Shown here piece after piece: positions 41,457 through 61,526 of a DNA stretch of 64,000 nt. The DNA lies in the NCBI RefSeq assembly GCF_964194025.1, contig NC_134474.1:1178001-1242000 (forward strand), in the 5' to 3' direction. Position numbers and translations under genes: made by a program. Position 1 is the first letter of the stretch. Each line of letters begins with the position of its first letter. The notes beneath the pieces were generated by a model that saw only the letters and a program-made list of their open reading frames with translations, was not told where the DNA came from and searched no databases. Origin of the DNA: Convolutriloba macropyga. Lineage: Eukaryota.

Positions 41457-44056
41457 ATTCTGTTGAAAAAATATTTAAAAACACTAAACTGTCAAAATCT
41501 CATTGAAGGGTGAATTGCGTTTAAAATTACACGGACCAGAATAGATTTCAAAGAAAAGCTTAAGTCTGATCATTACTGTGAGTTCAACTGATCACCTAAA
41601 AGTTATTGGCTTTGGTTTTGTCGAGGAGACAAGTGAAGATGAGGTGAGGCTGAGATTTTTTGCTGAGAGCCACAGGAAACATTATGGTTGAGGTCAGACA
41701 TGTTAATTAAGAAAAGGGGAAGAGATTTGGCTCGGGGCCATGTACGGGTAATTTGAGAAATTAGCCAGACTCTATGGGTAACTTCAGCGGAAAAGATGAG
41801 GCGGCAGCCCAGCCCCCGTACAGGTAGATTAGGGAGAATGGCGAGGAAGAGAGAATTCACAAAAAACATCGAGACAAAAATGGCAAGACGTACACATCAA
41901 AAATTAGCCACCTCAACAGCTTTGCAGGACTTATTGACGCCAATGAGCAACTCGATTATACCCGTGAAAAATGTTGGTTATTCTCGCAAGTTATCATGGA
42001 TGGCCCAATGTTCTTCTGGACAATCACTATTTTCTTTTTCATTTGTCGTTTGTCCTTTTCAGCTTCTTTCTTCGTTTTCTAGTGTTGATAAAAAGTTTGT
42101 GCACTTTTGGTTCAAGAAATTTCTTAATTTGTTTTTTTTTCTGGTAAACAGGAGCTGTTGTTTTTCTGCTTTAGTTGTTCTCAGCTCCGGAACTTCTGTA
42201 ATCACCTTTTTGTTTAAAAAATCATTTTGCTAGTCTTTGCGCTAGGCCAACATTGAGAGCCATCAAAGGTATGAGAGCCATCAAAACACACCTTTCAATT
42301 TGTTAGAGTTTTGGGCGCTAGTTGGTCCTCAACTAGATTCTACAATTCTGTTGAAAAAATTTTTAAAACACTAAACTGTCAAAATCTCATTGAAGGGTGA
42401 ATTGCGTTTAAAATTACACGGACCAGAATAGATTTCAAAGAAAAGCTTAAGTCTGATCATTACTGTGAGTTCAACTGATCACCTAAAAGTTTTTGGCTTT
42501 GGTTTTGTCGAGGAGACAAGTGAAGATGAGGTGAGGTTGAGATTATTTGCTGAGAGCCACAGGAAACATTATGGTTGAGGTCAGACATGTTAGTTAAGAA
42601 AAGGGGAAGAGATTTGGCTCGGGGCCATGTACGGGTAATTTGAGAAATTAGCCAGACTCTATGGGTAACCTCAGCGGAAAAGATGAGGCGGCAGCCCGGC
42701 CCCCGTACAGGTAGATTAGGGAGAATGGCAAGTGAACTGTGCAAGGAAGAGAGAATTCACAAAAAAACATCGAGACAAAAATGGCAAGACGTACACATCA
42801 AAAATTAGCCACCTCAACAGCTTTGCAGGATTTATTGACGGCAATGAGCAACTCGATTATACCCGTGAAAAATGTTGGTTATTCTCGCAAGTTATCATGG
42901 ATGGCCCAATGTTCTTCTGGACAATCACTATTTTCTTTTTCATTTGTCGTTTGTCCTTTTCAGCTTCTTTCTTCGTTTTTTAGTGTTGATAAAAAGTTTG
43001 TGCACTTTTGGTTCAAGAAATTTCTTAATTTGTTTTTTTTTCTGGTAAACAGGAGCTGTTGTATTTCTGCTTTAGTTGTTCTCAGCTTCGGCACTTCTGT
43101 AATCACCTTTTTGTTTAAAAAATCATTTTGCTAGTCTTTGCGCTAAGCCAACATTGAGAGCCATCAAAGGTATGAGAGCCATCAAAACACAACTTTCAAT
43201 TTGTTAGAGTTTTGGGCGCTAGTTGGTCCTCAACTAGATTCTACAATTCTGTTGAAAAAATGTTTAAAACACTAAACTGTCAAAATCTCATTGAAGGGTG
43301 AATTGCGTTTAAAATTACACGGACCAGAATAGATTTCAAAGAAAAGCTTAAGTCTGATCATTACTGTGAGTTCAACTGATCACCTAAAAGTTATTGGCTT
43401 TGGTTTTGTCGAGGAGACAAGTGAAGATGAGGTGAGGCTGAGATTATTTGCTGAGAGCCACAGGAAACATTATGGTTGAGGTCAGACATGTTAGTTAAGA
43501 AAAGGGGAAGAGATTTGGCTCGGGGCCATGTACGGGTAATTTGAGAAATTAGCCAGACTCTATGGGTAACTTCAGCGGAAAAGATGAGGCGGCAGCCCGG
43601 CCCCCGTACAGGTAGATTAGGGAGAATGGCAAGTGAACTGTGCAAGGAAGAGAGAATTCACAAAAAACATCGAGACAAAAATGGCAAGACGTACACATCA
43701 AAAATTAGCCACCTCAACAGCTTTACAGGATTTATTGACGGCAATGACCAGCTTGATTACACCCGGGAATAATGTTGGTTATTCTCGCAAGTTATCATGG
43801 ATGGCCCAATGTTCTTCTGGACAATCACTATTTTCTTTTTCATTTGTCGTTTGTCCTTTTTAGCTTCTTTCTTCGTTTTTTAGTGTTGATAAAAAGTTTG
43901 TGCACTTTTGGTTCAAGAAATTTCTTAATTTGTTTTTTTTTTCTGGTAAACAGGAGCTGTTGTTTTTCTGTTTTAGTTGTTCTCAGCTCCGGCACTTCTG
44001 TAATCACCTTTTTGTTTAAAAAATCATTTTGCTAGTCTTTGCGCTAAGCCAACATT
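41379..44056. repeat. Tandem triplication, ~0.89-0.90-kb unit
   Basis: Units start AGGTATGAGAGCCATCAAAACAC at 41379, 42267 and 43168; near-identical ORF translations recur three times. Confidence 0.93.
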
Positions 44057-45072: not shown

Positions 45073-45201
45073 AGTAGTGGATAAAACAGGGCTTCCAGCC
45101 ACCAGCAAAAATTTGACCCTTTCTCCAAGCGCTAATCACGCATGTCGAATCTGGCCAAATTTTACTGATTTCTGGAAGCCTTGTTTTATCCACTACTATA
45201 T
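45073..45201 (+). repeat. Left TIR of element B (self-complementary)
   Basis: AGTAGTGGATAAAACA...TGTTTTATCCACTACT; reverse-complement match to 61399-61526. Confidence 0.95.
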
Positions 45202-45410
45202 ATTAGCTCTAAATTTGATAAAAATTAAAATTAAAATAAAAAAAAACAAAAAATCAAAAAATCAAAGCAAAATTTATATTTCACTCTTTAAGAGTGATTC
45301 ACTCTTATTCGCAGTGATCCCCAGTAGAAAAGATTGCTCTTTTTCGCCCTTAAAGAGTGAATCCCTCTTTTTTGATATTTTTTTATTTTTTTTATTCTTT
45401 TTATTTCAAA

Positions 45411-46286
45411 TTATCTATACTTTTCAATAAATTTATATTTTCTTTTTGTTTTTTCTATATTTATTCCATTATTAATAAGAAATGATACAAAATTATAGTA
45501 TTTACATGAACAACTGTCTTCTGTTTGGTTAATAACTAAAGGACTTACAGCTCTAGGACTTTGCCAACTAGGATTAATTGTTTTATCCGCGAAGCGGTTA
45601 CACCGATCAGTTATATCAGGGAACCTGCTTTGCAGATTTCTACTAAATCCTCTAGTCATATCTATATCTGGATGTTGTTTCTTTACATGAGCCCGTATCC
45701 CATCATATCTCACAACAGAAGTACAATATGGACAATTAACTTTAGCTGAAGTACAACTTCTACATGTATACTTACCCTCATCAAAATTATTTAGTGGTTT
45801 TATATAATTACACTTATTACAACATCTAGTTAATACTTCTGGGCTGGGGTTAAGGTTAGGGTTAGGGTTGGGGATAAGGTTAGGGTTGGGGTTGGGGTTA
45901 GGATCTGAGTTCGAGTTATAGTCATAGATAGAACCAGAACCAGGACTAGAGCTAGAACTGGGGTTAGAACCAGAACCAGAACTAGAACTAGAACTAGAAC
46001 TAGGGTTAGAACTAGAGTTAGAATTAGGGTTAGAACTAGAACTAGGGTTAGAACTAGAATTAGAATAAGAATTAGAACTAGGGTTAGAACTAGAATTAGA
46101 ACTAGAACTAGATTCATTTTTTAAAGAACAACCCCACGGAGAAAAATTATTAGCACAAATACCACTTAATATTATATTACCACACATGCATTTATCAGTT
46201 TTATCTTTATGAAATGATTCATAATGATATTTTAAAACAGCAATGTTTCCACATTTATAATTACACTCTAAACATTGTAAAAGCAT
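45411..46286 (-). CDS. Multi-zinc-finger protein with S/N/P low-complexity linker (291 aa)
   Basis: CLECNYKC...HYESFH, CNKC...CRSC, CPYC...HVKKQH; TTATAAATG start context. Confidence 0.75.
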   Translation of the reverse strand: MLLQCLECNYKCGNIAVLKYHYESFHKDKTDKCMCGNIILSGICANNFSPWGCSLKNESSSSSNSSSNPSSNSYSNSSSNPSSSSNPNSNSSSNPSSSSSSSSGSGSNPSSSSSPGSGSIYDYNSNSDPNPNPNPNLIPNPNPNLNPSPEVLTRCCNKCNYIKPLNNFDEGKYTCRSCTSAKVNCPYCTSVVRYDGIRAHVKKQHPDIDMTRGFSRNLQSRFPDITDRCNRFADKTINPSWQSPRAVSPLVINQTEDSCSCKYYNFVSFLINNGINIEKTKRKYKFIEKYR

Positions 46287-46314
46287 TTATAAAAGGGTAA
46301 ACTATAAAATTTAC

Positions 46315-47979
46315 CTAATCCTTCACAGGGTAATATTTAACCATGATTTCAGTTAAATCTTTAGTATTATCTTTAGATGTGATACACTCTGCTAAATATC
46401 TATTTCCTAAAGTATTGAGTGTATTAGTTTTACATCTCTTATCTAAAATCAAATCAAGGTCTAATTCTTTTTTATCTTTAACAAAATTTATAATCTCTTC
46501 TCTGAGTTCTTCATTATTTATATATAGTTTGTTTAAAAACCTTCCTCCCTTTCTATTCAAAATTCCCATCTCTTCATTGACGAAGTCATAGTTACACTGA
46601 TCAGTATACGAACTTTGTTCGTGGTTTACCAAACTGCTTCCCTGATCAGTATAACTGCTTCGTGTTTCACCTTCCAACTCTTCTCCATATCCAACATTAA
46701 CTAATGTATTTACTCAACTCAACATTGTACTTGCTCCCATTGCTACAGTTCCAGCATTTCTTGATACTGAATTAGGATAAAAACAATTAAATATATATAA
46801 ACCTGCGCCTATAATTCCACCAATATTTGATAAAATTTTCATACCCTTTCCCATAATCATTTTTTTAGTTAGAACATCATTCTGAATCTTAATATTATTT
46901 AAAGTAAGAAGTTTATTAAAATAAAACTGATAATTATCATGATTAATAACACTTCTATCTGTTGCATTAGTCATTAGTGGTTTCATATATGCTATAAGTT
47001 AATTTATATCTTCTCTCTCTAAATTATCTTTTAAACTAAGAGCTTTTAAATCAAGGAAACCAACTCTTGAATTATATATCATCGTTCTATTACTACTAAT
47101 AATAATAAAAGTATTTTCCTTTTTACTATATTTAATTATACCATAACGAAGTTCATCTGACATTTCATCTGTATAATTATAATAGTTACTATTTAATTCA
47201 CTAATTATTTTATTGAAGTCATGTTCCCATTTATATATCTCATTAAAGTTTTTAAATAGGTCAGGTCCATTATAAGTTGTTAAATGAATAGTATCACAAC
47301 TCATTCTTGCTGTATTAATTATTTGAGCTGGTTTATGACACATTACAATCATTTGAATATTATAATGTCTTTCTTCAGTAAAATAATAATCTATATCCTT
47401 ATTTAACCTATCACCCATATCATCAAGTACTATTACACAATTTTGAAATTTATGCATATTATTTTTTGTGATCATATTTATATCACATTTATTAAACCCA
47501 GTATAAAACTTATTAGACTCAGGATCTATCCAGTCTCTGTCATCTTTACAAACTATAACTATGGACCTTTGGTCTTGATCTTGAACTTGATCTTGATCTT
47601 GAACTTGATGTTGAACTTGATCTTGAACTTGATCTTGAACTTGATCTTAAACTTGATCTTGAATTTGCTCTTGATCTTGAACGTGATGTTGAACTTGATG
47701 TTGAACTTGATCTTGATCTTGAACTTGATGTTGAACTTGATCATGGTCTAAGTATAACTTTAAGTATTGTCTAATAAAATATGTTTTACCCGTTCCAGTT
47801 CCACCATAAACAATAGTAAGTAGTGGTGACTTTTCATATTCAAATCTAACTAGACTCCTATTCATAAATCCACCAAAGCTTTCTTTTAGTTTTGTATATT
47901 TACTTGGTCTTGAATCAAATATTATATAACAAATTCCAATAATAATAATAAAAATAAAAACTGCACTACTTGTTTCCTT
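46315..47979 (-). pseudogene. Second packaging-type ATPase with N-terminal TM anchor and C-terminal hydrophobic extension (~554 aa; three in-frame stops, start mutated to AAG)
   Basis: ORFs 47647-47865, 46999-47475, 46714-46986 and 46315-46677 share one frame. GGTGTGKT, IVLDD, FTEERHYNI. Confidence 0.82.
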
Positions 47980-48063
47980 TTTTATATAATAAATATAGAT
48001 TTGATTTAGATTTAGACTCAGACTTATAATTAGACTTAGATTTAATAAATTTATTATATAAAA

Positions 48064-48694
48064 ATGCTCATTCTAACTTTTGAGGAATTCAATAATAAAT
48101 TTAATATTGATAATAATGCTATGAGTGATATCAGAATAAAAGATATAGGTAAAGATATAAGTCTAACACCAATTGAGATTGTAATGAGAGATCAAACTCC
48201 AGATAGTATCAGTGATCCTAACTTCATTATTGTAAATCTACATCCAACTGAAGGTACACATTGGTTTTTAGTTATAAGAAGAGAAGGTGGTCCAACATAT
48301 TACTTCGATAGTTTTGGTGTAGAAACCCCAACATTATTCCTAGAAGAATATGTTGATCTAGGCTCTAATGAGAGAATACAACAATATGATGAATCTTATT
48401 GTGGGGCTTATTGTTTATATATGATCTATCTTATTGATAGAGGATTTAGAATTAAAAGTGCTTCGAATATTCTAGTTAATCAATGTAAATATCCAGAAAT
48501 ATATAATGAGTGTTCTTGTTTAAGTTGTAATGTTAATCGGGAAACTTGTTTCGCAGATGATAATGATAATGTTAATGATAATGATAATGTTAATGATAAG
48601 GATAATGTCAGTGATAATGATAATTATAATGAAAATGATAATGTTATTGATCTACGAAGTAGCTTTACTAATAATGATAAAGATAATGTTAATG

Positions 48695-48729
<35 letters not shown>

Positions 48730-49466
48730 GATAGGAATAATGAATCTAATAGGAATAGCAATAGTAATAGCATTAGTAATAGTCCTACTAATAATATCCG
48801 TGAAGCGGTTTACCGATATCTGTAAACATAAATGATGATCTATTTTCATGGCTAAATGATGACGATATAATTACTGAAGCCGCATTCCCAGATAACTTTA
48901 GATGTATAATATCTGGTCCTAGTGAATGTGGTAAGACATTCTTATTGAAAAATCTACTTCTAGCTAGTATATACTTTGATAAGTTATACATCATTGGACC
49001 TACTGGTGATCAGTACCATGGTATAGAAAGAATAAACCCAAAAAGAGATGTTGAATTTATTAAAGATATAAAAGATTTACCATCTCCTGATAAACAACCC
49101 AAAGACTTAAAGAAACTAATGATATTCGATGATGTTAGAGCCAAGGAACCAGTTATCAATGAATACTTTTGTAGAGGTAGACATAATAATTGCAATATGA
49201 AATAACTTAATCAAAACCTGTTCTCTCTGGATAGGCAGAGTGTTAGAGAGAACTGTAATCAATTTATTTTATTTTAACAGAGAGGTAAAGTCCTCATATC
49301 TATATATCAAGATTTCTTTAATAATGTTGAACTTAGTTATAATGATTTTGCTAATATATGTAATAAGGTATGGAAAGAGCCTTATAATTATATTGTCATT
49401 GATGTAACTAAAAATAAAAATATTAATGGTAAACTAAGAATTAATTGGGATCGGAGAGCTTTGTAG
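48064..49466 (+). pseudogene. Adenain-like protease fused through an N/D-rich linker to a packaging ATPase (1-bp frameshift at ~48810, two later stops)
   Basis: VNLHPTEGTHW, YFDSFG, QQYDESYCG; then GPSECGKT, MIFDD, RGRHNN, RENCN, EPYNYIVID. The ATPase frame has no ATG of its own. Confidence 0.82.
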
Positions 49467-49484
49467 TTTAGTTTAAGTTTAAGT

Positions 49485-49635
49485 ATCAGGGAACCTGCTT
49501 CGCAGAGAAGTGTAGGTCTAAGTACAAGTCTAAGTATCGGGAACCTATTTCGCAGATAAGTATAAGTATAAGTATCGGGAACCTGCTTCGCAGATAAGTA
49601 TAAGTGTAAGTATCGGGGGAACCTGCTTCGCAGAT
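49485..49635 (-). repeat. Four intergenic copies of the hairpin micro-repeat separated by TAAGTA hexamers
   Basis: ATC(A/G)GGGAACCTGCTTCGCAGA(T)-like units at 49485, 49536, 49574 and 49612. Confidence 0.9.
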
Positions 49636-49645
49636 AAGTATAAGT

Positions 49646-50458
49646 CTAAATCAAATGTAAAGTAAAACTTAATAAATCACCATTAAAGTCTATAGGTCTT
49701 CCATGCTCATCTTTAATATGAAATTCTATATATTCTATTCTATCTTTAGTTACATTTTGATACAAGATATTAGTTGGTATAACATTTATCAAGTAACCTG
49801 GTGGTTCTGTTAGATAAAAAGTATGTAATATATCTGTATCTTTACCATTATCTTTAGCTCCAGATATAATATTGCAATGAATGTTAATAGTACTAAAACC
49901 CATAATATCAATAATTTTCTGAGATTTATATCTACTTTTTTATAAATTATTTTTCTAAATCCTATTAATGAGGCTAGTGAGTTTTCTATATCAAAGCTGA
50001 GTGCTCCTTGTTTTATTTCCATTAAACATTTCATCGTATTCTTATCAGGTTCTATGCTCATGTGCTCCCGGTGTAATAGTTGAATATAGCAACGGGATTC
50101 TTTTATAATTATGATTAAGTATAGATGTAATGTTTGGGCTTGAGGTAGAGATAGGGTTAAGGTTAGGGTCAGAGCTAAGAGCCCGAGGTAAAGCTTCATC
50201 ATCTTCTATAACAGTACTAGCATATAAGAATTGATTATTTCTCCTATTCACATTAAACACCGAATTATAAACAGATAATCTAATTAAACCTAATTTTGTT
50301 GTATTAAGTATAGGTTCAATAAAGTTAAACTTTTCATTTGGTTTTAACATTCTAAAGTTAAATGTATGCTCTTCTTTAGTTTTAGTTAAAGCTTCGTGTA
50401 TATTTTGTAGTTCTCTTAACATTAAACTATCGGTGAAACCGCTTCGTGAATCAGTCAT
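49646..50458 (-). pseudogene. Minor capsid protein (penton-like), frameshifted
   Basis: LSVYNSVFNV...NNQF, ITPG, INIHCNII, PPGY, DEHGRPIDFNG...FTLHL across three frames. Confidence 0.82.
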
Positions 50459-50474
50459 TTTTTATCTAATAAAA

Positions 50475-51719
50475 ATGGATTTTAATTTGGATACAACTTA
50501 TGGTTATAATAATGATATACATAAAAGTAAGATTATAAAATATAAACCTAATAATCTAGCAACAATGAATACGGTTAATACCAATGTTAATATCATACTC
50601 AATAGAGAAGAGAATCACTTAAATTTGCGTGATTCATATCTAGATATAGAGTTTGTTGTATCAGATGATGCTGGTGGTGTATTTGCTATTGATGCTAATA
50701 TCAGATTAGTTAATTATGGTATGATGGCATTGTTCAGTTCAATTAAGCTTGAAACTAGTGGTGGTTGGACAATTGAATATATAGATCATTGTCATCCTAA
50801 TCTATTGATGTATAAGTTATTAACTAGTACTGTTGATGAATATGAGAGTGGTTTTGTTAAAAATCAGGGCAATAGAGATAGTCAACTTAAAAGTGACCAT
50901 ATTGCTGCACAACGAGGACATTTGTATATGATGATTAAGATGAGTGATCTATTTGGTTTCGTAAATGATTTAGGAAAGATTATATATGGTTTAGGATTTA
51001 AACTATTATTAAAAAAGAATAATAATGATAGAGCTCTATATAGAGTTAATGCTAATCCTGGTGCAGTTGCTAATGATGGTAATATAGAAATTAGAGATAT
51101 ATCATGGTGTGTACCTAGTATTGATCCTAGTAATGATAATAGAATTATTGTACAAACGGGTTTAAGTAAAAGGAATAATGTAGACTTTAGTTATTATGAA
51201 AGAAAGACATTTTATAAGAATGTACCCAATGCTACTAACTTCTTGTTTGATCTTGGTATGGAAAGTGGTATGGAAAGACCGCAATATATAATAGTTGGTT
51301 TTGAAAATAATAATGTTAATGAACAAACTCATGATGCAAGTACATTTGATGTAATGAATGTTACTGAGTGTTATTGTAAGATTGGTAGTGAGTTTTATCC
51401 CGAGGATAGAATGAATATTAATTATGGAACCAATAATTATAATGAGGCTTTTAAAGAGATTGTTAGCTTTAATAAAGATTATAATGGGCTATCACATAAT
51501 ATAAAACCATATATAAATCACAGAACATTCAAAAGTAATTATAGAATATATGTATTCGATACTAGATATCAAAGGGATCATATAGGTCCACAACCAATAC
51601 AACTTAACTTTAAATTTAGTGCTGCAGTTGCAGATGTTATATGTCATGCATTAGTTTTAACTAAGAAGGTTATTAGTGTGAATAGTGATGGTAATAAGAT
51701 GGTAGACACAATATCATAG
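50475..51719 (+). CDS. Major capsid protein (414 aa, intact)
   Basis: LRDSYLDIEF, ALFSSIKL, SDLFGF, ISWCVP, ERPQYIIVGF, FYP, IYVFD; size and context fit a Polinton MCP. Confidence 0.85.
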   Translation: MDFNLDTTYGYNNDIHKSKIIKYKPNNLATMNTVNTNVNIILNREENHLNLRDSYLDIEFVVSDDAGGVFAIDANIRLVNYGMMALFSSIKLETSGGWTIEYIDHCHPNLLMYKLLTSTVDEYESGFVKNQGNRDSQLKSDHIAAQRGHLYMMIKMSDLFGFVNDLGKIIYGLGFKLLLKKNNNDRALYRVNANPGAVANDGNIEIRDISWCVPSIDPSNDNRIIVQTGLSKRNNVDFSYYERKTFYKNVPNATNFLFDLGMESGMERPQYIIVGFENNNVNEQTHDASTFDVMNVTECYCKIGSEFYPEDRMNINYGTNNYNEAFKEIVSFNKDYNGLSHNIKPYINHRTFKSNYRIYVFDTRYQRDHIGPQPIQLNFKFSAAVADVICHALVLTKKVISVNSDGNKMVDTIS

Positions 51720-51870
51720 ATATAATTTAAGTCATAGATATAATTTAAGTCATAGATATAATTTAAGTCATAGATATAACTCTAGCAATAATTATAATTT
51801 TAGATATAACTCTAGCGATAGTTATAATTTTAGATATAACTCTAGCGATAATTTATAATTATAGTATAAT
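51715..51870. repeat. Short tandem repeats (18-mer x3, 30-mer x3) downstream of MCP
   Basis: CATAGATATAATTTAAGT x3; TAGATATAACTCTAGC(A/G)ATA... x3. Confidence 0.8.
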
Positions 51871-51940
51871 ATAGTTATTGTTATAATTATATACTTATAC
51901 TTGTACATAACCATATACTTATACTTATATTTATAGCTAG

Positions 51941-52135
51941 TCAGCTCAAATTGTTTTTCTTGTTAATACCTAACTATTTCTTATTAGTATTAACAAAACC
52001 TTTAGCATAAATAATGTCTAATTTCTATTTATTCTCTAGAGCCAAGCCTCTAGCTTCAAGCTTAACCTTAGCCTTGGGCCTAACCTTAGGCTGAGGCTTA
52101 ATAACAACAAAGGGATTATACTTTTTAACTTCCAT
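51941..52135 (-). pseudogene. Small basic protein (64 codons, two in-frame stops), absent from the ORF track
   Basis: MEVKKYNPFVVIKPQPKVRPKAKVKLEARG..., preceded by TATATATAAAAAATAATG; back-to-back with 52154. Confidence 0.5.
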
Positions 52136-52153
52136 TATTTTTTATATATAGAA

Positions 52154-52573
52154 ATGGGTCTTTTAAATAATTTCAAAACTAATTCATATTGTGTTGGAGG
52201 TAGACATTATAGTGGTACTGTTAATATAAGAGGAGCTATCACTTCAAAAGATACTAAAATGTTAAAAGGTAATTGTGTTTTATGTAGAAGGAATAAATCA
52301 ATGACAGTATCTGATGCAACAATAGAAGCAGAAGGACTTAAAGATTTCTTTCAAAGTGTTGGTAGGGCTACAGTTAACTTTGGAAAGAAGGTTGCCAATA
52401 ATCCAGTAAGAGCATTAGAAATAGCAAGTAAAATAGCAAGTGCAGCTGCAACTAGAAACCCTAGAGCAGCTTTATCAGCCACACCCGATTTAATAAAATT
52501 TGCAACTACTGGTGAAGGTATAAAAGTAGTACAAAAAGGAAGAGGGTTATACTTAGGTACAAAGAAAAGATAA
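52154..52573 (+). CDS. Zinc-ribbon plus amphipathic-helix virion core/lytic-type protein
   Basis: MG start, YCVGGRH...GNCVLC, AEG|LKDFFQSVG amphipathic helix, KGRG|LYL tail. Confidence 0.7.
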   Translation: MGLLNNFKTNSYCVGGRHYSGTVNIRGAITSKDTKMLKGNCVLCRRNKSMTVSDATIEAEGLKDFFQSVGRATVNFGKKVANNPVRALEIASKIASAAATRNPRAALSATPDLIKFATTGEGIKVVQKGRGLYLGTKKR

Positions 52574-52763
52574 TTATTTGATTATAATTATGATTATTTT
52601 ATGTTTATGATTATGATTATGATTATATCCATGCTTATATCCATGATTATATTATGTTTATGATTATGATTATAGCTATGATTATGATTATATATTTATC
52701 GATAAATATTATTACTAATATTATTATTACTAAAAACATTGTTATTACTAAGCACTAATTTCT

Positions 52764-53330
52764 TTAATCTAAAAAAATACTCAGCTTGATTTTCTTATTC
52801 TTTTTATAATCCTCATAAAACTTAACAAATTCATTATACTCATCATTATCTATTTTATTATCATTCATTGATTTAGTATATAGTTTATTAAACTTATCAC
52901 TAAACTGTTTACTTAAAATATACATTTGTGAATACTTTATAATTTTATTTCTAATTTTAGTATTAATTGTTTTTGATAATGAACCACAAACAGTTGCTGT
53001 AGCAAAAGCTGTTGGTATAGAATAAGCTAATCCTATACCTGTTAATGAAACTGATGTTTTTGTTGCAGTTGTTGCTATTGATGATAATACTATTTCTGTT
53101 ATCTCAGCTATGTTAATATAATTTTTATATCTACTTAACTTCTTATTATAGTTATTAGTTTCAGTTTCATAATAATTTCTAATATCTTTTATAATGTTAA
53201 TACTGTTGGTAAATTTATTATTAGCTTGAATCTTTTCGTTTATCAATCTTTCTGATACTGATGACAAATCTGGATATAGAAATCTCTCACTCGGTGCTGT
53301 TGGATTGGTCATTGCTTTGCTTATTTTCAT
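52764..53330 (-). CDS. Membrane protein with PTAP and LYPDL late-domain motifs
   Basis: MTNPTAPSERFLYPDLS, coiled coil, hydrophobic hairpin, DNKIDNDEY EF-hand-like end. Start at 53330 or 53312. Confidence 0.75.
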   Translation of the reverse strand: MKISKAMTNPTAPSERFLYPDLSSVSERLINEKIQANNKFTNSINIIKDIRNYYETETNNYNKKLSRYKNYINIAEITEIVLSSIATTATKTSVSLTGIGLAYSIPTAFATATVCGSLSKTINTKIRNKIIKYSQMYILSKQFSDKFNKLYTKSMNDNKIDNDEYNEFVKFYEDYKKNKKIKLSIFLD

Positions 53331-53991
53331 TAGCAAAAGTTCTTTCTATTTCTTTCATTATATCTTCTTGATTAAAACAATAATGCATCTCAAGTCTATC
53401 TTTCTCTTTATTATCAAGTAACTTACTTTGTAAAAGTATAGCAATTATATATTGTACTATAACACCTCTAAGAGATTTATTGTATTCTTTCATTTCTCTC
53501 AGACCGTTAGTAAACATTTCATCTAGTTGTATGTTAGTGATATTCTGATTAAACTTATTATTATCAAATTCTTGCTTTAATTGATTATATTTAGAGATAG
53601 TATCTGCAGCAACTTTATTACAAAACTTAACAGTATTTCTGACTTCATTTTTTGATTCAATAAACTCATTAATTAGTTCTTCATTAACTTGTGTTTCATT
53701 TAGTTTTAATGTTTTAGTTGTAACTTTATCAAAGTCACCCTTTCTTAATTCAGTTATGTTTCTACTTAAAATGTCTATTTTATTAGAAGAGGATAATAAG
53801 TTATTGTCACAATACTCTTTATTAACAACAACTTTTTCATCTCTAGGAGGAAGAACATTTGTAATTTTATAGGTATCTTTCATATCAATATCATCATTAT
53901 CTTCTAGGAATAACCCACGAGCCTTACTTAGTATTAAGTTGTTTCCATTCCCTATATGAGGTTTCGCTTGGTTAAATCTATTTCTTGTCAT
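53287..53991 (-). CDS. Fibre/spike-like coiled-coil protein (234 aa)
   Basis: DMKDTYKITNVLPP....VVNKEYCD resembles the trimeric neck motif KIxNVxxPxxxxDAxNKxYVD, followed by heptads. Confidence 0.55.
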   Translation of the reverse strand: MTRNRFNQAKPHIGNGNNLILSKARGLFLEDNDDIDMKDTYKITNVLPPRDEKVVVNKEYCDNNLLSSSNKIDILSRNITELRKGDFDKVTTKTLKLNETQVNEELINEFIESKNEVRNTVKFCNKVAADTISKYNQLKQEFDNNKFNQNITNIQLDEMFTNGLREMKEYNKSLRGVIVQYIIAILLQSKLLDNKEKDRLEMHYCFNQEDIMKEIERTFANENKQSNDQSNSTE

Positions 53992-54025
53992 TATTTATAT
54001 TAAGAAAAAAATCCGGCTTGCCGGC

Positions 54026-55015
54026 TTAGGACCGTAGGTCTATATTTAATGATTCCAAAACCTTATTATTAGATTCAAAATCAAACTCGGATTTCAATAG
54101 TTCCCGTTCATAATATTTGCCTTCTATTATCTCTCCATTAATATCTTCTATTTCATATGTTGGTGGATGTGTTTTTAGAATTTCATTCACTTTAAACAAT
54201 TCTCTATTCCATTTAGAAGTGTAACCTTTAGAGAAGATATTACGTTTATCTACATTTCTAACATAATCACCAACTTTAAGTTTAGGTTTAATATTCTTAA
54301 AACTAAAAGTGTATTTAACTTTATCAGGATTATTAGAAGCATCAACTGGTGTCATATTAATTGTTGAGTGAATGTTATTGTTATATGTTACAACAGCTTC
54401 ATTTCATATATTTACCCAATTACCATCGCCCTTGATTAACATTGGTTTATTTATTATGTGTAATAATGTTCTATTAAATCTCTCTAAAAACACATCCTTT
54501 AAATCACTATAAGTAGAATATAGCTCTATCCCTGAAGCGGCTTTGCGGGTTCCATATTCTTTAAGTAAAGATTTAAATGTTTTATTGTAAAACTCACTAC
54601 CTCTATCTACCCATAACTTTTCTGGTTTTCTAGGTTCAGAGCCACCTTGTGGATGTTCACTAAATACTATTTTAAAACAATTAGTTATAGATAAACCAGA
54701 TTTATTCTATGAAGGAATAGCCCATGCATATTTTGTGATTATATCTATAACTGTTAATATAAGTTTATAATTATTGTTGTATTTACTTAGAGATGACTTA
54801 TCAATTAAATCAGCTGACCATGTTTCATCTTTATATAATGGTATTATTCTTTGTCTTCTAAACTTTGTTATTCGAGGACTGAATACTTTTTTAGCTAGTT
54901 GTTGTTGTTGTTGTTTTTCTATCGTTTTATTTATCGACATAGTCATCTGCGAACGAGCTCTGCTCGTGGCTAGCCAAGCAGGTTCCCTGATAGCTTCGCT
55001 CAGGGACGTAGTCAT
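54026..55015 (-). pseudogene. Retroviral-like (rve, DDE) integrase, frameshifted
   Basis: WSADLID, VIDIITKYAWA, LWVDRGSEFYN, ERFNRT, YNNNIHST, GDYVR...FSKGYT..W..ELF, GKYYEREL. Confidence 0.93.
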
Positions 55016-55023
55016 GGATTCTT

Positions 55024-55891
55024 CTATTTACCATAATTAAAAACAAAATTATCTAGTTGGTCTTGATTAATATAATTCATAGATAATAGTTGCTTAGATA
55101 TATCTAGCACTTCATCATGTAATCCATCATGACCAGCTTTTGTTTCTAGTATTAGTAATTCTAATCTTTCTAATAAATTATTTGGGTTGCCATGTAATCT
55201 TCTGCCAAATATATCATCTCTTACCTTTATTATACGTTTTATTGTTCTATATCTAGCGCTTTTCTTATCCCCTTTTCCTAAATCATATCTAATATCCTTT
55301 AAAAACCTTTTAATTTTGTTTTCATCTTCCTCAACCTTATCATCATATGATGCATTTGTTTTAGTAAGAAAATCAGTAAATCCTTCTGAAAACTCATATA
55401 AAATATCCCTAACTAAAAATGCACCCTGCTCTAGAGTTATATTAACACCATTCATTTTATATCTCCTACTAGGTAAATCTACGAGTTCTAATTTTAATTG
55501 AGGATTAGTTTGAGCCCCCATGAAGAAGTTTGGCTGTTTTTGTATCAACATAAACTGGTGCTATATCTTGTTGAGTCCCCTTTAACGTTTCACCAATCTT
55601 GGAAGCAGTTTCATTAAACTGGGAACCAGCTTGCTCGATCATCTTAGTTTGTTTATCTAACTCTTGATTTTGCAAATCTATTGCTCTTAATGTTTGTTCA
55701 CTTAATGCTAGATTCTGTTCATTGTTTGCGTTTATCTGCGAAGCAGTTTCACCGATAGTTTTGGTTAGAGGATCAAATAACTCTTCTATTTCACCATACT
55801 ATTCTTGTTGTTTTAATTTGTCTTCTAATCTATTTCTTCTGTTTTGTTTTTCTATATTATTTAATTCTATAGGTTTATCTAGTTTAGTCAT
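55024..55891 (-). pseudogene. Conserved Polinton coiled-coil protein with C-terminal PNxLxxRLxLLxxxxxAG motif
   Basis: MTKLDKP...ELFDPLTK coiled coil, a stop and a frameshift, then NPNNLLERLELLILETKAGHDGLHDE. Confidence 0.7.
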
Positions 55892-55927
55892 TTTATATAT
55901 ATTGAAAAATTATAATAAGAGTAAAAA

Positions 55928-56248
55928 ATGGATAATGAAAACAGCTTCTCTCTTAATCTAAAAAGATGTTTAGCTTGTAAAAGACGTTGTTATACTACAG
56001 ATGAGTTTAATGATCATATTAAGGAACCAAATCATGATGATTTAATAATTTCAACTTATTCTAAATATGTAGATGGGGCTAAGAAGATAATAAAATTTCT
56101 AGAATATAATAAAAATATAATAGCTGGAGCTACACTATATAAGAATACAATCATGGGAGACCTCAAGGAAAAATATATGGCTCAGATAATGATTTATAAT
56201 ATACTAACTACCAACCATATGGATGTAATGAATGAATTAGGTCTATAA
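55928..56248 (+). CDS. Small C2H2-like zinc-finger protein
   Basis: CLAC...FNDHIKEPNH; AAAAAATG start; convergent with pPolB. Confidence 0.65.
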   Translation: MDNENSFSLNLKRCLACKRRCYTTDEFNDHIKEPNHDDLIISTYSKYVDGAKKIIKFLEYNKNIIAGATLYKNTIMGDLKEKYMAQIMIYNILTTNHMDVMNELGL

Positions 56249-56264
56249 TTATTTGTTATAAAAA

Positions 56265-59200
56265 TTAGCAAAGCTCGTTATATAATATAATAGCAACTTC
56301 AATTAACTTTCTATCGTCATTAATGGTTAGTTCTAGAATATTATTAACCAGTAGGTCTTTGTCTTCATCTAATGATCTGCGAAGCAGTTTCACTGATGCT
56401 TGGTGGATCATTTTTATTAAATCTCTTTTGAATAGATATAGATTCTCATCATGAGGATAGCTTTTAATATTGTTTTCATAAAACCTTTTATCATCAAATA
56501 TATTTAAACTAATCTTACTTGTTTTTGTTGTTGTCATGTTATCGCCAACTTTTTGTATTCTACATTCATCTACTGTTCTCTGTGTATTATTCATTAATGC
56601 ATCATAATAATCTATGTGCCTAGCATTATCATGCTTCTTTATTCCTTTTTCTTTAGTGTTTTTAGGATAATTTTTGAAGCTATATGTTTTGGGGGACAAT
56701 GCTATAAAATCCTCAATAATCCTACTTCCCAGCTCGTGCTTAAACTTGCCGGGGACTTTATTATTAGTTTTTATAGGTATGTCTAGATTACTTAAGTCCA
56801 TATGCTCATCAATAACTTTACCTTCACTATAAATCAATACGAAACTGTCCGTATCCATATAGTGAAGTGTTAGATCTTTGAGGGATGGTTGTAGAATATT
56901 ATAGAATACATCATACATGTGTAATTTACTTAATTCTAAGATAGTAACACCTACATATACTGGAAAATCATATTCTATTTTTTTCTTTATATATTCTATT
57001 TGGCTATAATTTCTATATCTAGTTATATTCTTAAAAGTTGGTTTACTTACACTTTTCATTATCTTTTCTTCATCATGCAAAAACTTGCTTTGAAAGAAGT
57101 GTAGAGGATTCATGCACATTCTTCCATATAAAGAGTTATTCATTAATTTCCTTACATCTTTTTCTGCTTCAGTTTTAGCTGTCGCTCTTTTATTTGTATT
57201 GTTTTGTATATAATCGATACATATATAATCTTGTTTAAATTTAATTACTCTATGTTTTTTTGTTACTTTTACTCCCATCTTAACATAGAACTTTAACATC
57301 CTATAATGAACAATATATTCTGTTTTGTTGTTTTGGTCTAAAAATAATTTCTCGGACCTTGCTTTACTTTTCTCTCTTTGTCGGTATCCCAATTCATTAT
57401 CATTTATCTTTCTTTTATTAGGCATTAGTGCTAACCGTTCTGTTCTCTCTTTACATTCATTAGTATAATCAATATCACAAACTATATAGTAACCATGATC
57501 ACTATCATCTGGAGTATTCAATATTACATCGAGGAACCCGCTTGGCTTGCCACGGACGAAGTCCGTTCGTGGATCTAGAGTAGTAGTAGTAATAAACTCA
57601 AAATCCTTATAAGGTAACTTTTGCATCATTGCATAACCATATAGGTTGTTTGCGTCTATGTACCATATGGTCTTACCATCAATGTTATCTATATATCTAT
57701 CACCTATTATTCCGCATATACCACCTCTCTTTGCTCCAACAAAATCATCTAGCATTTGTTTATCTTGCAATGTATCCAATGTAACACCACTTGACATTAA
57801 CCAACAATCAAAACTATAACCTGGGAGACTTACATAATGTATTGAGTTGAGCTTGAATTCTTTCATACTTAGTTTAACATATTCATTCATGTAATAGTCT
57901 AATATTTCCACGTCATTCTGTAAATACTCTAAGTTAGATCTTTTCCAGTTTTATGAATGTTTTCATTATTAAAGTTATCCACTTCCTCTTGTGTTGGTAA
58001 TTTATTATGTAGAGAGGATTTAAAGTCTTCTCTCTTTAGATTACCTATAGCTTCTTGGTAGGTAGCTTTGCTACTATACGCCTCTAAACCAAAGTATTCA
58101 TATGGATATAATGTTTTAGTTTTACATCCGTATATCTTTGCCATTTGATCTAGAGGCATAGCTAAGAAGTTATAACTGTCTAAGAGTTCGAGACAACCAA
58201 TGCTAATTATCTTAGATTTACCAGCAGCTAGTGGAATGTTATCTACTTTTCTTTTATCATTATTCTGCCTAAAGAGTTCACTGTATAGTGGGTTGAAGTC
58301 AGAGCCAGAGCCATTATGGAATATTACTGGAATGAAGTTTTGTTGTTTGTACCTTAGATTACATATTTTACATGCTGGTCCTCTATATATACCAGTTTCA
58401 TGACAATGATCTCTTACTTTATTGATACATGTTTTGCTGCAGATGTGACAAGTGTTATTAGTTTCATGATATAATTTATCTTCTTCTGTGAATATCATAT
58501 TTTCATTATGTTTGAAAGTTTCTATTTCTAACAGATCTCCAGCAAATCTTTCGATGCAGCCTAGACCGAAGTAGTGTTTGAAGTTACCTTGCCAGGTGTA
58601 ACCCACAGCTATTGGAATATGTTCAGCTATTACATATTTTAAATCATTAGTTGAGACTTCAACAATGCAACATTCTATATCGGCAGTTATATTTTTTTAT
58701 ATTCTGACGTTTGTGTTCATTTACAAAATTAATGTTTTTTCTTAGGACAAACAATCTCTGGTTTGAATGAGGTGCTGCAGTCGTGTTTATCATATTTAAT
58801 TTGTGAGTTAAACCAATAGGTACACCTATCACAATAATAATATTTAATGTTGTTTTTATTTGGTCGTTCTAACAGGGTTTTTATATTTTTTATTAGGGCA
58901 CAGTGTTCTATTTGACCATTACTCCAAACTAGTATTCTTACATCTTTTCTATCTTTATTGAGATCATCCACTTGTTTAAACAGTTCTATTTTACCATTAC
59001 CACAAGGTGTGTATACCCAAATTTTAATATTATACAATTTCTGTATTCTTATTATATAAGCAAAATCATCTTCATGTTGTTGTCTTGTTTCAATTAGTTT
59101 ATCTACATATTTACTTTCTCGAGTTGCATGGTGTAGGGCGGGATGTAGCCAAGCAGTTATAGTTAGTCGTAAGCAATTGTATTTATAACTACGTATATTT

Positions 59201-59982
59201 AATGATTTAGAGTTTTTGAGATCTGGAGGTAAATCTATATAACTACCAATAGATGCTTTAGTTGGTTCAAAGTTTAACTGAATACTTCTTATTCCAAGAA
59301 ACTCAAAATCATAACCCTAACCTTCATATATTTCCTTTTCGAAATCTAGCCACCAATTGAAGTCACCATATTCATATATTGCATTATTATTAATATAATC
59401 AGTATTGAAAAATATTTTAGTAGTTTTAACTTCTTCTTTGGTTCTCTTCTTATAATCACATTCAGCCGTGATCTTATATTTAAAACTCTTAACTTTACGA
59501 AACTGGTAACAGTTTTTAATTTCTTCTAAAGAGTAATTAGTTGCTTCATCTATATCTTCAATGTAATTCCCACCTTTATCAGTAATGTAAAATTCTCTCA
59601 TGTTCTGACTTGAGTATATATCGAAGTCTTCTGTGTTTTCTAGATACATGCAATTGTGACTACATGAATGAGTAGTTAGAGCTACTTTGCTTCTAAATTT
59701 TTCATGACATTCTTTACATTCATACTTAATTCTGGTGTAGATATCCTCTTCAGTTTTAGTTTTAGGTTTGGTGGCTGGTTTAGTTTTTATATTATAATCA
59801 TCTTCATCCAAATTATACACCCTCTCCGAGATTTCCTCTTCTTCAGACTCAAACATTTTCTCCAATAGTTCCTTATGTTTGAGATCGTATGATTGATGCC
59901 TGTATAAAGCCTTCTTTGATTCAAAGGATAGATTACAGACATCACAGAAGTTTATGACACTAGTATTATTCGATTGAGACAT
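56265..59982 (-). pseudogene. Protein-primed DNA polymerase B with N-terminal C2H2 fingers and Endo VII/HNH-like insert
   Basis: CDVC/CKEC fingers, GSYIDLP, CHIC...VRDHCHETG.YRG.AC..CNL, LLDSYNFL, YPYEY, IDANNLYG, KLMNNSLYG, YMDTDS, PKTY, KGI, FDDKRF. Confidence 0.95.
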
Positions 59983-60027
59983 GATGTATTTTTTTAGGGA
60001 AATAATCAAAAAATAATTTTTCGAAAA

Positions 60028-60357
60028 ATGAAAATGAAATGTGATAAGTGTATAAATAAACCTTGGAAAGAATGTTGTAATAATTGTAAAGAATTAGAAT
60101 ATTCTTGTTCTGTATGTAAAAATATGGTTAAGGTTAAATATTATATAGAACATTTGGGATACCATTATTCTGATCCTGATCAATATCTAACGTGTAGTAT
60201 GTGTAATGTTTATAAACATATATCATTATATAGATTTAGAAATAGGAAATGTAGACTATGTTTTTATCTTCATAGATATAGATATGGTCACACTAGAAAT
60301 CAATTCGGAGAGCATGTTTATAAGTATAATATTCAAGAAGACATAGAAAAACACTAA
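60028..60357 (+). CDS. Small Cys-rich zinc-binding protein (109 aa)
   Basis: Five CxxC pairs; back-to-back with pPolB. Confidence 0.65.
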   Translation: MKMKCDKCINKPWKECCNNCKELEYSCSVCKNMVKVKYYIEHLGYHYSDPDQYLTCSMCNVYKHISLYRFRNRKCRLCFYLHRYRYGHTRNQFGEHVYKYNIQEDIEKH

Positions 60358-61398
60358 TCACTGTGTTTCCACCGATCCCAGTTTTTTTGACTGTGCTATT
60401 ATTGTTCGCTTTCTTTCATATTTAGCAACCGCTAATAGTATAAGAAGTCAACAAGCTTGGTTTAACATCGCATTACACTGCTTAGCAGATCGAATGAAAA
60501 GTGCATGTCATGCTAAAATGGCCGCCGCCATTGACAAAGAAAGCCACCACCACTAACAGAATGAAAACAAGTGAAAATTTCGAATATAAGATGCCCTTAA
60601 AAATTAGCTAGTAAAGTGAGTATTTATTAAAATCTTTATTTAATTTTTAATAGATTATACAAATCATTCAATTTAATAGAAGGATTTAATTATTATTTTA
60701 CTTTAAAACATGTAATTACTTGGGAAATGATAAATAATTTTAAGTTAAAAATCATGTGAGAATATTCTAGAAAAAGAATGTTCTAGAATAATTCTCCACG
60801 TGGGGACCTTTATCCTCAACGGCACTTTTTGGCTATTCATCATGAGTTTCACTTCACTACAAAAACTGTAAAATGATACATTAATATTGTTCAGTCAGCT
60901 TAATATTAGTATTCAGTCAGCCTAATAATTAAAATTAAAATTGTTCAAGCATTCTGTAGTTGCACCCTCCCCCACAGTTGCCATTAAGAAAGGTCGAGCA
61001 GTACTGCCGTAGCGTGGTAAAGGCGAGTCAACCTTTTATCAAGACCTCCCAAGACTCGGCTCAAAAATGTAACCAGGTACATAGAATCACTCAGTTAAAC
61101 ATCATAGATCAATCGTCTCCTGGTTAAAGTCAAAAATTTTAAAGCAACTTGTTTCTTATTATCCAATTCTAAGCAATTTTGAGTTATTTTCAGTCCATCC
61201 GATTCTATTGAAAAAAAACTTTGTGAGATGATTAACCTGATTTATTTCAGTATAGTTTGGCATATTAGATATGAAATTAGGCTTAAACCTAGCTTTGAGA
61301 ACTTTTGGATATTAGTGTATGAATTGCATAAATTATACTGGCTAGCTATGTACATTTTTGTACACAATTGTGCGCGTAGTATGTATTTATAGTGGTGA

Positions 61399-61526
61399 AT
61401 ATAGTAGTGGATAAAACAAGGGATTCAACAAACAGTAAAATTTGGCCCGATTCGACATGCGCGATTAGCGTTAGGAGAAAGGGACAAATTTTACTGGTGG
61501 TTGAACCCCTTGTTTTATCCACTACT
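61399..61526 (-). repeat. Right TIR of element B (self-complementary)
   Basis: AGTAGTGGATAAAACA 61403...TGTTTTATCCACTACT 61526, followed by the TSD. Confidence 0.95.

Follow-up and report, generated by a model that had tools for sequence, protein, structure and literature searches.

One small gene in the genome of Convolutriloba macropyga bears on how animal Polintons exit cells and on whether they form transmissible particles. The window analyzed here, a stretch of 64,000 nucleotides, contains a Polinton (Table 1) that encodes a 188-aa protein, predicted to form a membrane hairpin, with two short motifs of the TSG101 and ALIX types in its N-terminal tail. In the accessible part of the literature, nematode elements alone have a proposed envelope protein (10.1101/2022.07.12.499685).

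The element was delimited by its termini (AGTAGT...ACTACT), with a 6-bp target-site duplication on both sides and terminal inverted repeats at about 45073-45201 and 61399-61526. The Polinton/Maverick (adintovirus-type) gene set of pPolB, rve integrase, A32 ATPase and double jelly-roll capsid was present, the capsid with a strong match and the other three with weak matches on pieces. The identification as a Polinton made in the first-pass annotation was thus borne out by the AGT-type ends, the inverted repeats, the target-site duplication and the gene set. The copy is a relic, as shown by the fragmented state of PolB, the integrase, the penton and the two ATPases. Many short tandem-repeat expansions (45830-46124, 47550-47770, 48480-48830, 49390-49680, 51640-51960 and 52580-52760) were seen within and between genes, and some of them break the ATPase and protease frames. 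Each terminal repeat (45073-45197 and 61403-61526) is an imperfect palindrome that starts with AGTAGT and ends with ACTACT, so that the ends could fold into hairpins. Positions 41796-44035 (plus strand), just to the left of the Polinton, contain three repeats that are nearly identical, are spaced at about 1 kb and show up as repeated ORF translations.

Table 1. Features of the Polinton and of its 188-aa protein (positions in the window)
Feature	Position	Strand	Evidence
Whole Polinton, 16,454 bp	45073..61526	.	Termini, inverted repeats, target-site duplication
Second A32-like ATPase, N-terminal hydrophobic segment, broken here	46999..48072	-	Profile search
Probable adenain-like protease	48064..48825	+	His/Asp/Gln/Cys pattern by eye; no Pfam match
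A32-like packaging ATPase, broken	48804..49407	+	Pox_A32 E 0.0013 (first piece); second piece by eye
Probable penton, in pieces	49646..50461	-	Position; weak profile match to penton-fold proteins, prob 37%, E 3.5e-4
Double jelly-roll major capsid protein	50475..51719	+	Pfam PF21738 E 6e-23
MG-start basic protein, 139 aa (amphipathic protein of the first-pass annotation), no late motif	52154..52573	+	
SLATT-like helical-hairpin protein, 188 aa, with N-terminal putative late-domain tail	52764..53330	-	ORF and AlphaFold2 model
SLATT-like domain, aa 50-174	52809..53183	-	NCBIfam SLATT_1 NF033634
DxxIDxxEY loop, aa 157-165, conserved	52836..52862	-	Alignment
Weakly hydrophobic Gly/Ala/Ser/Thr-rich hairpin, ~aa 72-119, basic flanks	52974..53117	-	Hydropathy, model
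LYPDL, aa 18-22, ALIX-type YPx[L/I] motif	53265..53279	-	Sequence
PTAP, aa 10-13, TSG101-type motif	53292..53303	-	Sequence
Retroviral-type integrase, three pieces	54026..55027	-	rve E 0.0066 (middle piece); others by eye
PolB region, in pieces	56265..59982	-	DNA_pol_B_2 E 0.001, Endonuclease_7 E 2e-9 on one piece; rest by eye

The minus-strand translation of 53265-53312 reads MTNPTAPSERFLYPDL and lies inside an open ORF of 188 aa (52764-53330). The Met at 53312, taken as the start in the first-pass annotation, is the second one, an in-frame ATG being present six codons upstream at 53330; the second Met is the start in many homologues. The protein matched both late-domain definitions, P(T/S)AP and YPXnL, as worded in PMC8402826. 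From 200,000 shuffles of the 188-aa protein, the chance of PTAP and LYPDL occurring together was estimated at ~1e-5, and among the stop-to-stop frames of at least 90 aa in the element (5,655 residues) the pair was unique to this ORF. The gene belongs to a large family, with 3,153 candidates in the 1.18-Gb host genome; the 150 that were scored were 89 to 100% identical, and 34 of these 150 best-scoring genomic copies contained internal stops (hand count).

The conservation of the motifs was analyzed in 42 long distant homologues (median pairwise identity, 22%), chosen as representatives from the 150 listed among 246 matches after fragments and close copies had been left out. YPx[LIMV] was found within the first 45 residues of 27 of them (shuffle mean, 0.94), YPxL in 22 (0.39), LYPxL in 11 (0.03) and P[TS]AP in 10 (0.07), and both motifs were present, in either order, in 9 (0.00). 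In 5,000 composition-matched shuffles none of these counts was reached. Past residue 70, no YPx[LIMV], LYPxL or P[TS]AP occurred in any of the 42 proteins. PPxY was considered as a third family motif and rejected, since its 2 occurrences in 42 were not significant (138 of 5,000 shuffles reached that count). Among 120 close copies, which are not independent, P[TS]AP was kept in 111 and LYPxL in 105, the motif columns being more conserved than the other columns of the tail (0.973 versus 0.876).

A second set consisted of 54 of 72 new proteins, those starting with Met and at least 195 aa long. YPx[LIMV] was present in 53 of them, [PA][TS]AP in 44 and strict P[TS]AP in 18, in a set that is not independent because the tail was in the search profile and most of its members belong to one clade. 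For that same reason, counts by cluster are fairer. At 40% identity, 92 sequences fell into 34 clusters, a single one of which held 42 of the 92; YPx[LIMV] was found in 27 clusters, and P[TS]AP was the majority state in 7. Accordingly, the ALIX-type YPx[L/I] motif is constant across the family, with the TSG101-type P[TS]AP motif as an accessory. The first-pass description of PTAP and LYPDL at the N terminus of an intact ORF with a hydrophobic hairpin thus held, the ORF being open and the hairpin weakly hydrophobic, and conservation, proposed there as a check, was found as well: both motifs are kept in distant homologues above the shuffled level, P[TS]AP in a minority of lineages.

The arrangement of the two motifs was variable. 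In the distant homologues they were separated by 5 to 21 residues, and their order was reversed (YP followed by TAP) in a second, penton-linked clade that includes a Clytia protein. In a tree of 50 cores, from which the tails had been removed, the YP-then-TAP arrangement accounted for 2 changes, while for the TAP-then-YP arrangement the well-supported branches require 5 or more, counts that are approximate because 11 of the 47 inner branches are unresolved; 9 of the 50 rows had neither motif. Given the variable spacing and the flipped order, the tail motifs behave as modular binding motifs. Within the motifs the choice of residues was narrow. In the 54 further homologues [TS]AP was preceded by A in 26 proteins, by P in 18 and by no other residue, and I, L or V stood at position +3 of the YP motif. 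These variants are in line with published binding: Alix and PalA bind YPXL/I (PMC3244986), and ASAP bound Tsg101 in a protein of tiger frog virus, an iridovirus (PMC4880917). The main caution comes from the same report, in which binding was seen for 3 of more than 20 viral proteins with putative late domains; a bare match to a motif is often inert. Judged from the sequences, the conservation points to a constrained binding motif, whichever stage of the life cycle it may serve.

The clade with the reversed order was found on eleven short metagenome contigs. An ORF abuts the gene upstream on ten of them, and the eleventh contig begins inside the gene. A model built for seven aligned upstream ORFs matched the mavirus and Sputnik pentons (E 3e-6; Z 9.0 and 8.4), and the three further upstream ORFs, which are partial, were similar by eye to those seven. 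Because a penton abuts it, the 188-aa-type gene is capsid-linked in this second lineage too, with a different gene order. The reversed-order contigs also encode a protein of 356 to 368 aa, encoded divergently from the penton (L030, 99-1202, minus strand; L026, 493-1560, minus strand). It fell into no Pfam family, had no match of use in the Atlas and could be an unrecognized major capsid protein. Scans of viral contigs for genome context found nothing. The named homologues of the 188-aa protein were from Clytia and Desmophyllum.

In the AlphaFold2 model of the 188-aa protein (43 sequences; pLDDT, 85.6), a coil (residues 1 to 21) was followed by helices at 22-97, 101-156 and 162-187, the first two predicted to form a long hairpin with its turn at residues 98 to 100. 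The tail was without confident structure (pLDDT, 58 to 67). Charged residues are absent from the tip of the hairpin over a median of 40 aa in the family, and an uncharged run of at least 30 aa is present in 35 of 43 members. Basic residues flanked the hairpin on both sides in 37 of the 43, and an N-terminal hydrophobic segment was present in none. Basic flanks mark the cytosolic side of a membrane segment (the positive-inside rule), and from their presence on both sides, both ends of the protein, and hence the motifs, are predicted to lie in the cytosol; a luminal tail, raised as a possible objection in the first-pass annotation, is not predicted. The hairpin of the present copy had a Kyte-Doolittle 19-mer maximum of 1.24, compared with a family median of 1.95, and is more akin to the hairpin of a toxin that inserts on demand than to a stable anchor.

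Among families, the core matched the NCBIfam SLATT_1 profile best, at E 1.1e-4 (model positions 2-119 of 132) with 22.1 bits, under the cut-off of 41; at E<=0.1 that profile was matched by 22 of the 43 family members and Pfam SLATT_1 by 3. What we take to be the SLATT hallmark is a long hairpin of two neighboring hydrophobic helices with a helical part in the cytosol behind it, and such a hairpin with a helical part behind it was present in the model. The core is thus best described as a divergent SLATT-like two-helix membrane hairpin and a candidate member of SLATT itself. This likeness had been missed in the first-pass annotation. Foldseek searches of viral models (BFVD) gave as top matches three uncharacterized proteins of invertebrate iridoviruses, S6DF61, A0A5B8RH66 and A0A068QKD3 (E 8e-5 to 9e-4), with 19 to 23% identity over about the whole length; from the modeled structures, these are probably homologues. 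They were followed by giant-virus proteins, some of them annotated as SLATT, at weak scores (E 0.05 to 0.9). Fold searches of the PDB with the model gave nothing at E<=0.001, and VIA, with the best Z (9.9), was discarded as lying within the noise for helical bundles. PHROGs and PADLOC scans yielded scattered weak matches only, a tblastn search of phages with one homologue gave no match, and the Atlas search returned viral and cnidarian clusters without names. D157 and E164 were the best-kept columns of the family, in a core motif DxxIDxxE[YF] between helices 2 and 3; to our eyes this loop is half EF-hand-like in sequence, and it may have a role in Ca2+ binding or oligomerization.

In the second ATPase a hydrophobic segment lies about 56 aa ahead of Walker A, and in 5 of 7 copies examined a Met stands in front of that segment; the gene has 2,343 candidates in the host genome. 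The membrane-anchored ATPase proposed in the first-pass annotation was recovered in sibling copies, being broken in this one. The same annotation had tentatively combined it with the MG-start protein and the 188-aa protein into a membrane and egress module, which found no support; neither of the two has a late motif. No late domain was found in the Polinton capsid protein either. Just downstream of the second ATPase, a 90-aa ORF (46714-46986, minus strand) with a Gly-rich, moderately hydrophobic C-terminal half (1.54) and no Pfam match is, by its sequence, possibly another small membrane protein.

On the side of the host, the genome contains an exon for the UEV domain of TSG101 and exons for the V domain of ALIX, the genes being split by introns, a structure that together with the cnidarian homologues fits an animal host. 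The pocket residues compared (F676 of ALIX among them) were those that we take to matter in the UEV and V domains. The TSG101 exon keeps Y68, N69, M95, P139, V141 and F142 and has F in the place of Y63, and the putative ALIX exon piece starts with Phe-Tyr aligned to F676. Besides the ALIX gene on C2, a second V-domain-like gene (G000:C12:13551838-13552134; L012) was present; it is probably of the HD-PTP type, and its product is a possible alternative partner of the YPx[L/I] motif.

The anatomy of the 188-aa protein, the conservation and rearrangement of its motifs and the capsid linkage of its gene type were all computed. Binding of ESCRT factors by the tail motifs appears probable on this footing. 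The egress model as a whole, which draws on analogy and which we hold to be evenly balanced, would make the SLATT-like hairpin protein a virus-encoded ESCRT adaptor for non-lytic release in vesicles. The hairpin would insert into a membrane, endosomal or plasma, leaving both ends on the cytosolic side, and the tail would bind the V domain of host ALIX and, where the motif is present, the UEV domain of TSG101; ESCRT-III/VPS4 would then cut the bud away from the cytosol. Non-enveloped capsids would in this way leave in host vesicles without lysis, a capture for which a link between the protein and the capsid would be required. More broadly, and a little more tentatively, in a widespread group of polinton-like viruses from animals, a SLATT membrane effector may have become a dedicated ESCRT adaptor, and these viruses may exit non-lytically in host vesicles, the TSG101 motif having been repeatedly added or moved beside a constant ALIX motif. 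If this is true, it would be the first concrete egress mechanism for Polintons that lack a fusogen and a route for their spread between cells and hosts, and the function would possibly be common to the uncharacterized iridovirus homologues.

Other explanations must be weighed against ESCRT-driven release. The conserved tail could bind a partner outside ESCRT (a host adaptor, its own helices or the capsid), its likeness to late domains being incidental. Tyr-x-x-hydrophobic is a general sorting signal, and the family's frequent [I/L]YPx[L/I] form, with YPx[LIMV] always shortly before helix 1, would suit such a signal too; strict LYPxL, moreover, is limited to 11 of the 42 distant homologues. This explanation is nevertheless a rather improbable one, given that Pro follows Tyr much more often than chance would have it, that two unrelated ESCRT-ligand motifs co-occur in either order in 9 of 42 proteins against a null mean of 0.00, and that the tail has no confident structure in the model. 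A stronger competitor, though still on the unlikely side, accepts ESCRT binding and assigns it to another step: the protein would be a viroporin or pore with a part in entry, lysis or escape from the endosome, its motifs serving for routing to multivesicular bodies, repair or shedding of the pore, a replication or nuclear-envelope compartment, or sequestration of ALIX and TSG101. Weak profile matches to the pore-forming hairpins AopB (E 8e-4), MakA (0.013) and NheB (0.015) and an RTX N-terminal domain in 5 of 43 family members are compatible with a pore, even if the toxin matches lie under their cut-offs and are expected of any long hydrophobic hairpin, and nothing clear came out of the fold searches of the PDB. 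For the SLATT proteins of polinton-like viruses, the published proposals are an endosomal-escape pore (PMC12220804) or, elsewhere, lytic egress or abortive infection and defense (10.64898/2026.10.13.758929), and ESCRT is described as acting in the repair of pores, in the nuclear egress of herpesviruses and in replication compartments (PMC10159163). Reviews, as far as available, nevertheless treat TSG101 and ALIX motifs on one tail as a signature of release (PMC8402826). The pore and release readings overlap, since NS3 of orbiviruses, a release protein, has viroporin-like activity (PMC7409164).

True envelopment, as the first-pass annotation had suggested, was the least favored of all. Here the virions would have an envelope, and the 188-aa protein would be a matrix-like budding protein acting with the membrane-anchored ATPase, whose Met and hydrophobic segment ahead of Walker A in 5 of 7 copies would fit such a role. 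An envelope has been proposed for nematode Polintons, which have a gB-like fusogen (10.1101/2022.07.12.499685; 10.1101/2023.08.22.554363), the best structural matches of the 188-aa protein are to iridovirus proteins of invertebrates, and a vertebrate iridovirus buds through ESCRT (PMC4880917). However, the ATPase is without a late motif, and no fusogen was found in the Polinton: the 24 frames examined cover it so closely that no internal gap exceeds 446 bp (1,172 bp is left at the right end), and the sole strongly hydrophobic segment among them is that of the ATPase. With neither a fusogen nor a fusogen-sized ORF or gap in this copy, a true envelope is very improbable.

The preferred reading, an ESCRT adaptor for non-lytic release, departs from what has been proposed for related genes. 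SLATT genes of polinton-like viruses and adintoviruses are likewise small two-helix hairpins in polinton-type genomes (PMC12220804; 10.1101/2025.10.09.676808, as available), and a SLATT gene is labeled in the Hydra and Stylophora adintovirus maps of Fig. S2 in PMC8502044; we infer that the latter belongs to the family of the 188-aa protein. The roles proposed for such genes are pore, entry, lysis and defense, compared with that of an ESCRT adaptor here, and neither ESCRT nor late domains are mentioned in the accessible text of the SLATT papers PMC12220804, PMC8502044, 10.1101/2025.10.09.676808 and 10.64898/2026.10.13.758929. The literature searched contained no link between Polintons and ESCRT (one may stand in subscription papers, bioRxiv supplements or Starrett Fig. 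S1), nor between adintoviruses and late domains or, among the papers listed, SLATT and ESCRT. Each of the parts was known already; a SLATT-like hairpin joined to ESCRT motifs on a Polinton was not found in that literature. The conserved motif pair on a capsid-linked membrane protein makes the question of exit testable on one isolated protein and opens a first way into the function of viral SLATT proteins; the guesses made for them in the available literature have so far been pore roles.

Among known systems, the late domains of Gag (PTAP and YPXnL in HIV-1 p6; YPXL in EIAV p9) are of the same motif classes, are likewise paired, lie in a disordered tail and are position-independent and exchangeable within Gag (PMC8402826). 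Gag itself forms the particle, whereas the Polinton has its motifs on a hairpin protein distinct from the capsid protein, which lacks them. The same source describes quasi-enveloped hepatitis A virus, whose non-enveloped capsid similarly leaves in vesicles via ALIX/ESCRT, but with YPXnL in the capsid protein VP2 and no membrane adaptor. Nematode Mavericks, as described, bear a fusogen with a signal peptide, a large ectodomain and a TM segment, in contrast to this Polinton copy, which has no such ORF. NS3 of bluetongue virus, a two-TM protein of a non-enveloped virus, carries PSAP and PPRY and drives non-lytic egress, and orbivirus NS3 in general is the closest parallel in mode of action to what is proposed for the 188-aa protein, by its small size, two TM segments, late domains, coiled coil, viroporin-like activity, non-lytic egress and non-enveloped virus (PMC7409164). 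It differs in its motifs, PSAP and PPRY rather than the YPx[L/I] and [P/A][T/S]AP of the 188-aa family, in its 21-aa glycosylated luminal loop, where the 188-aa protein has a 3-residue turn, and in its origin from an RNA virus rather than a dsDNA element. A Foldseek comparison of the 188-aa model with orbivirus NS3 gave E 0.51 and a probability of 0.13, and the likeness between the two is treated as one of analogy.
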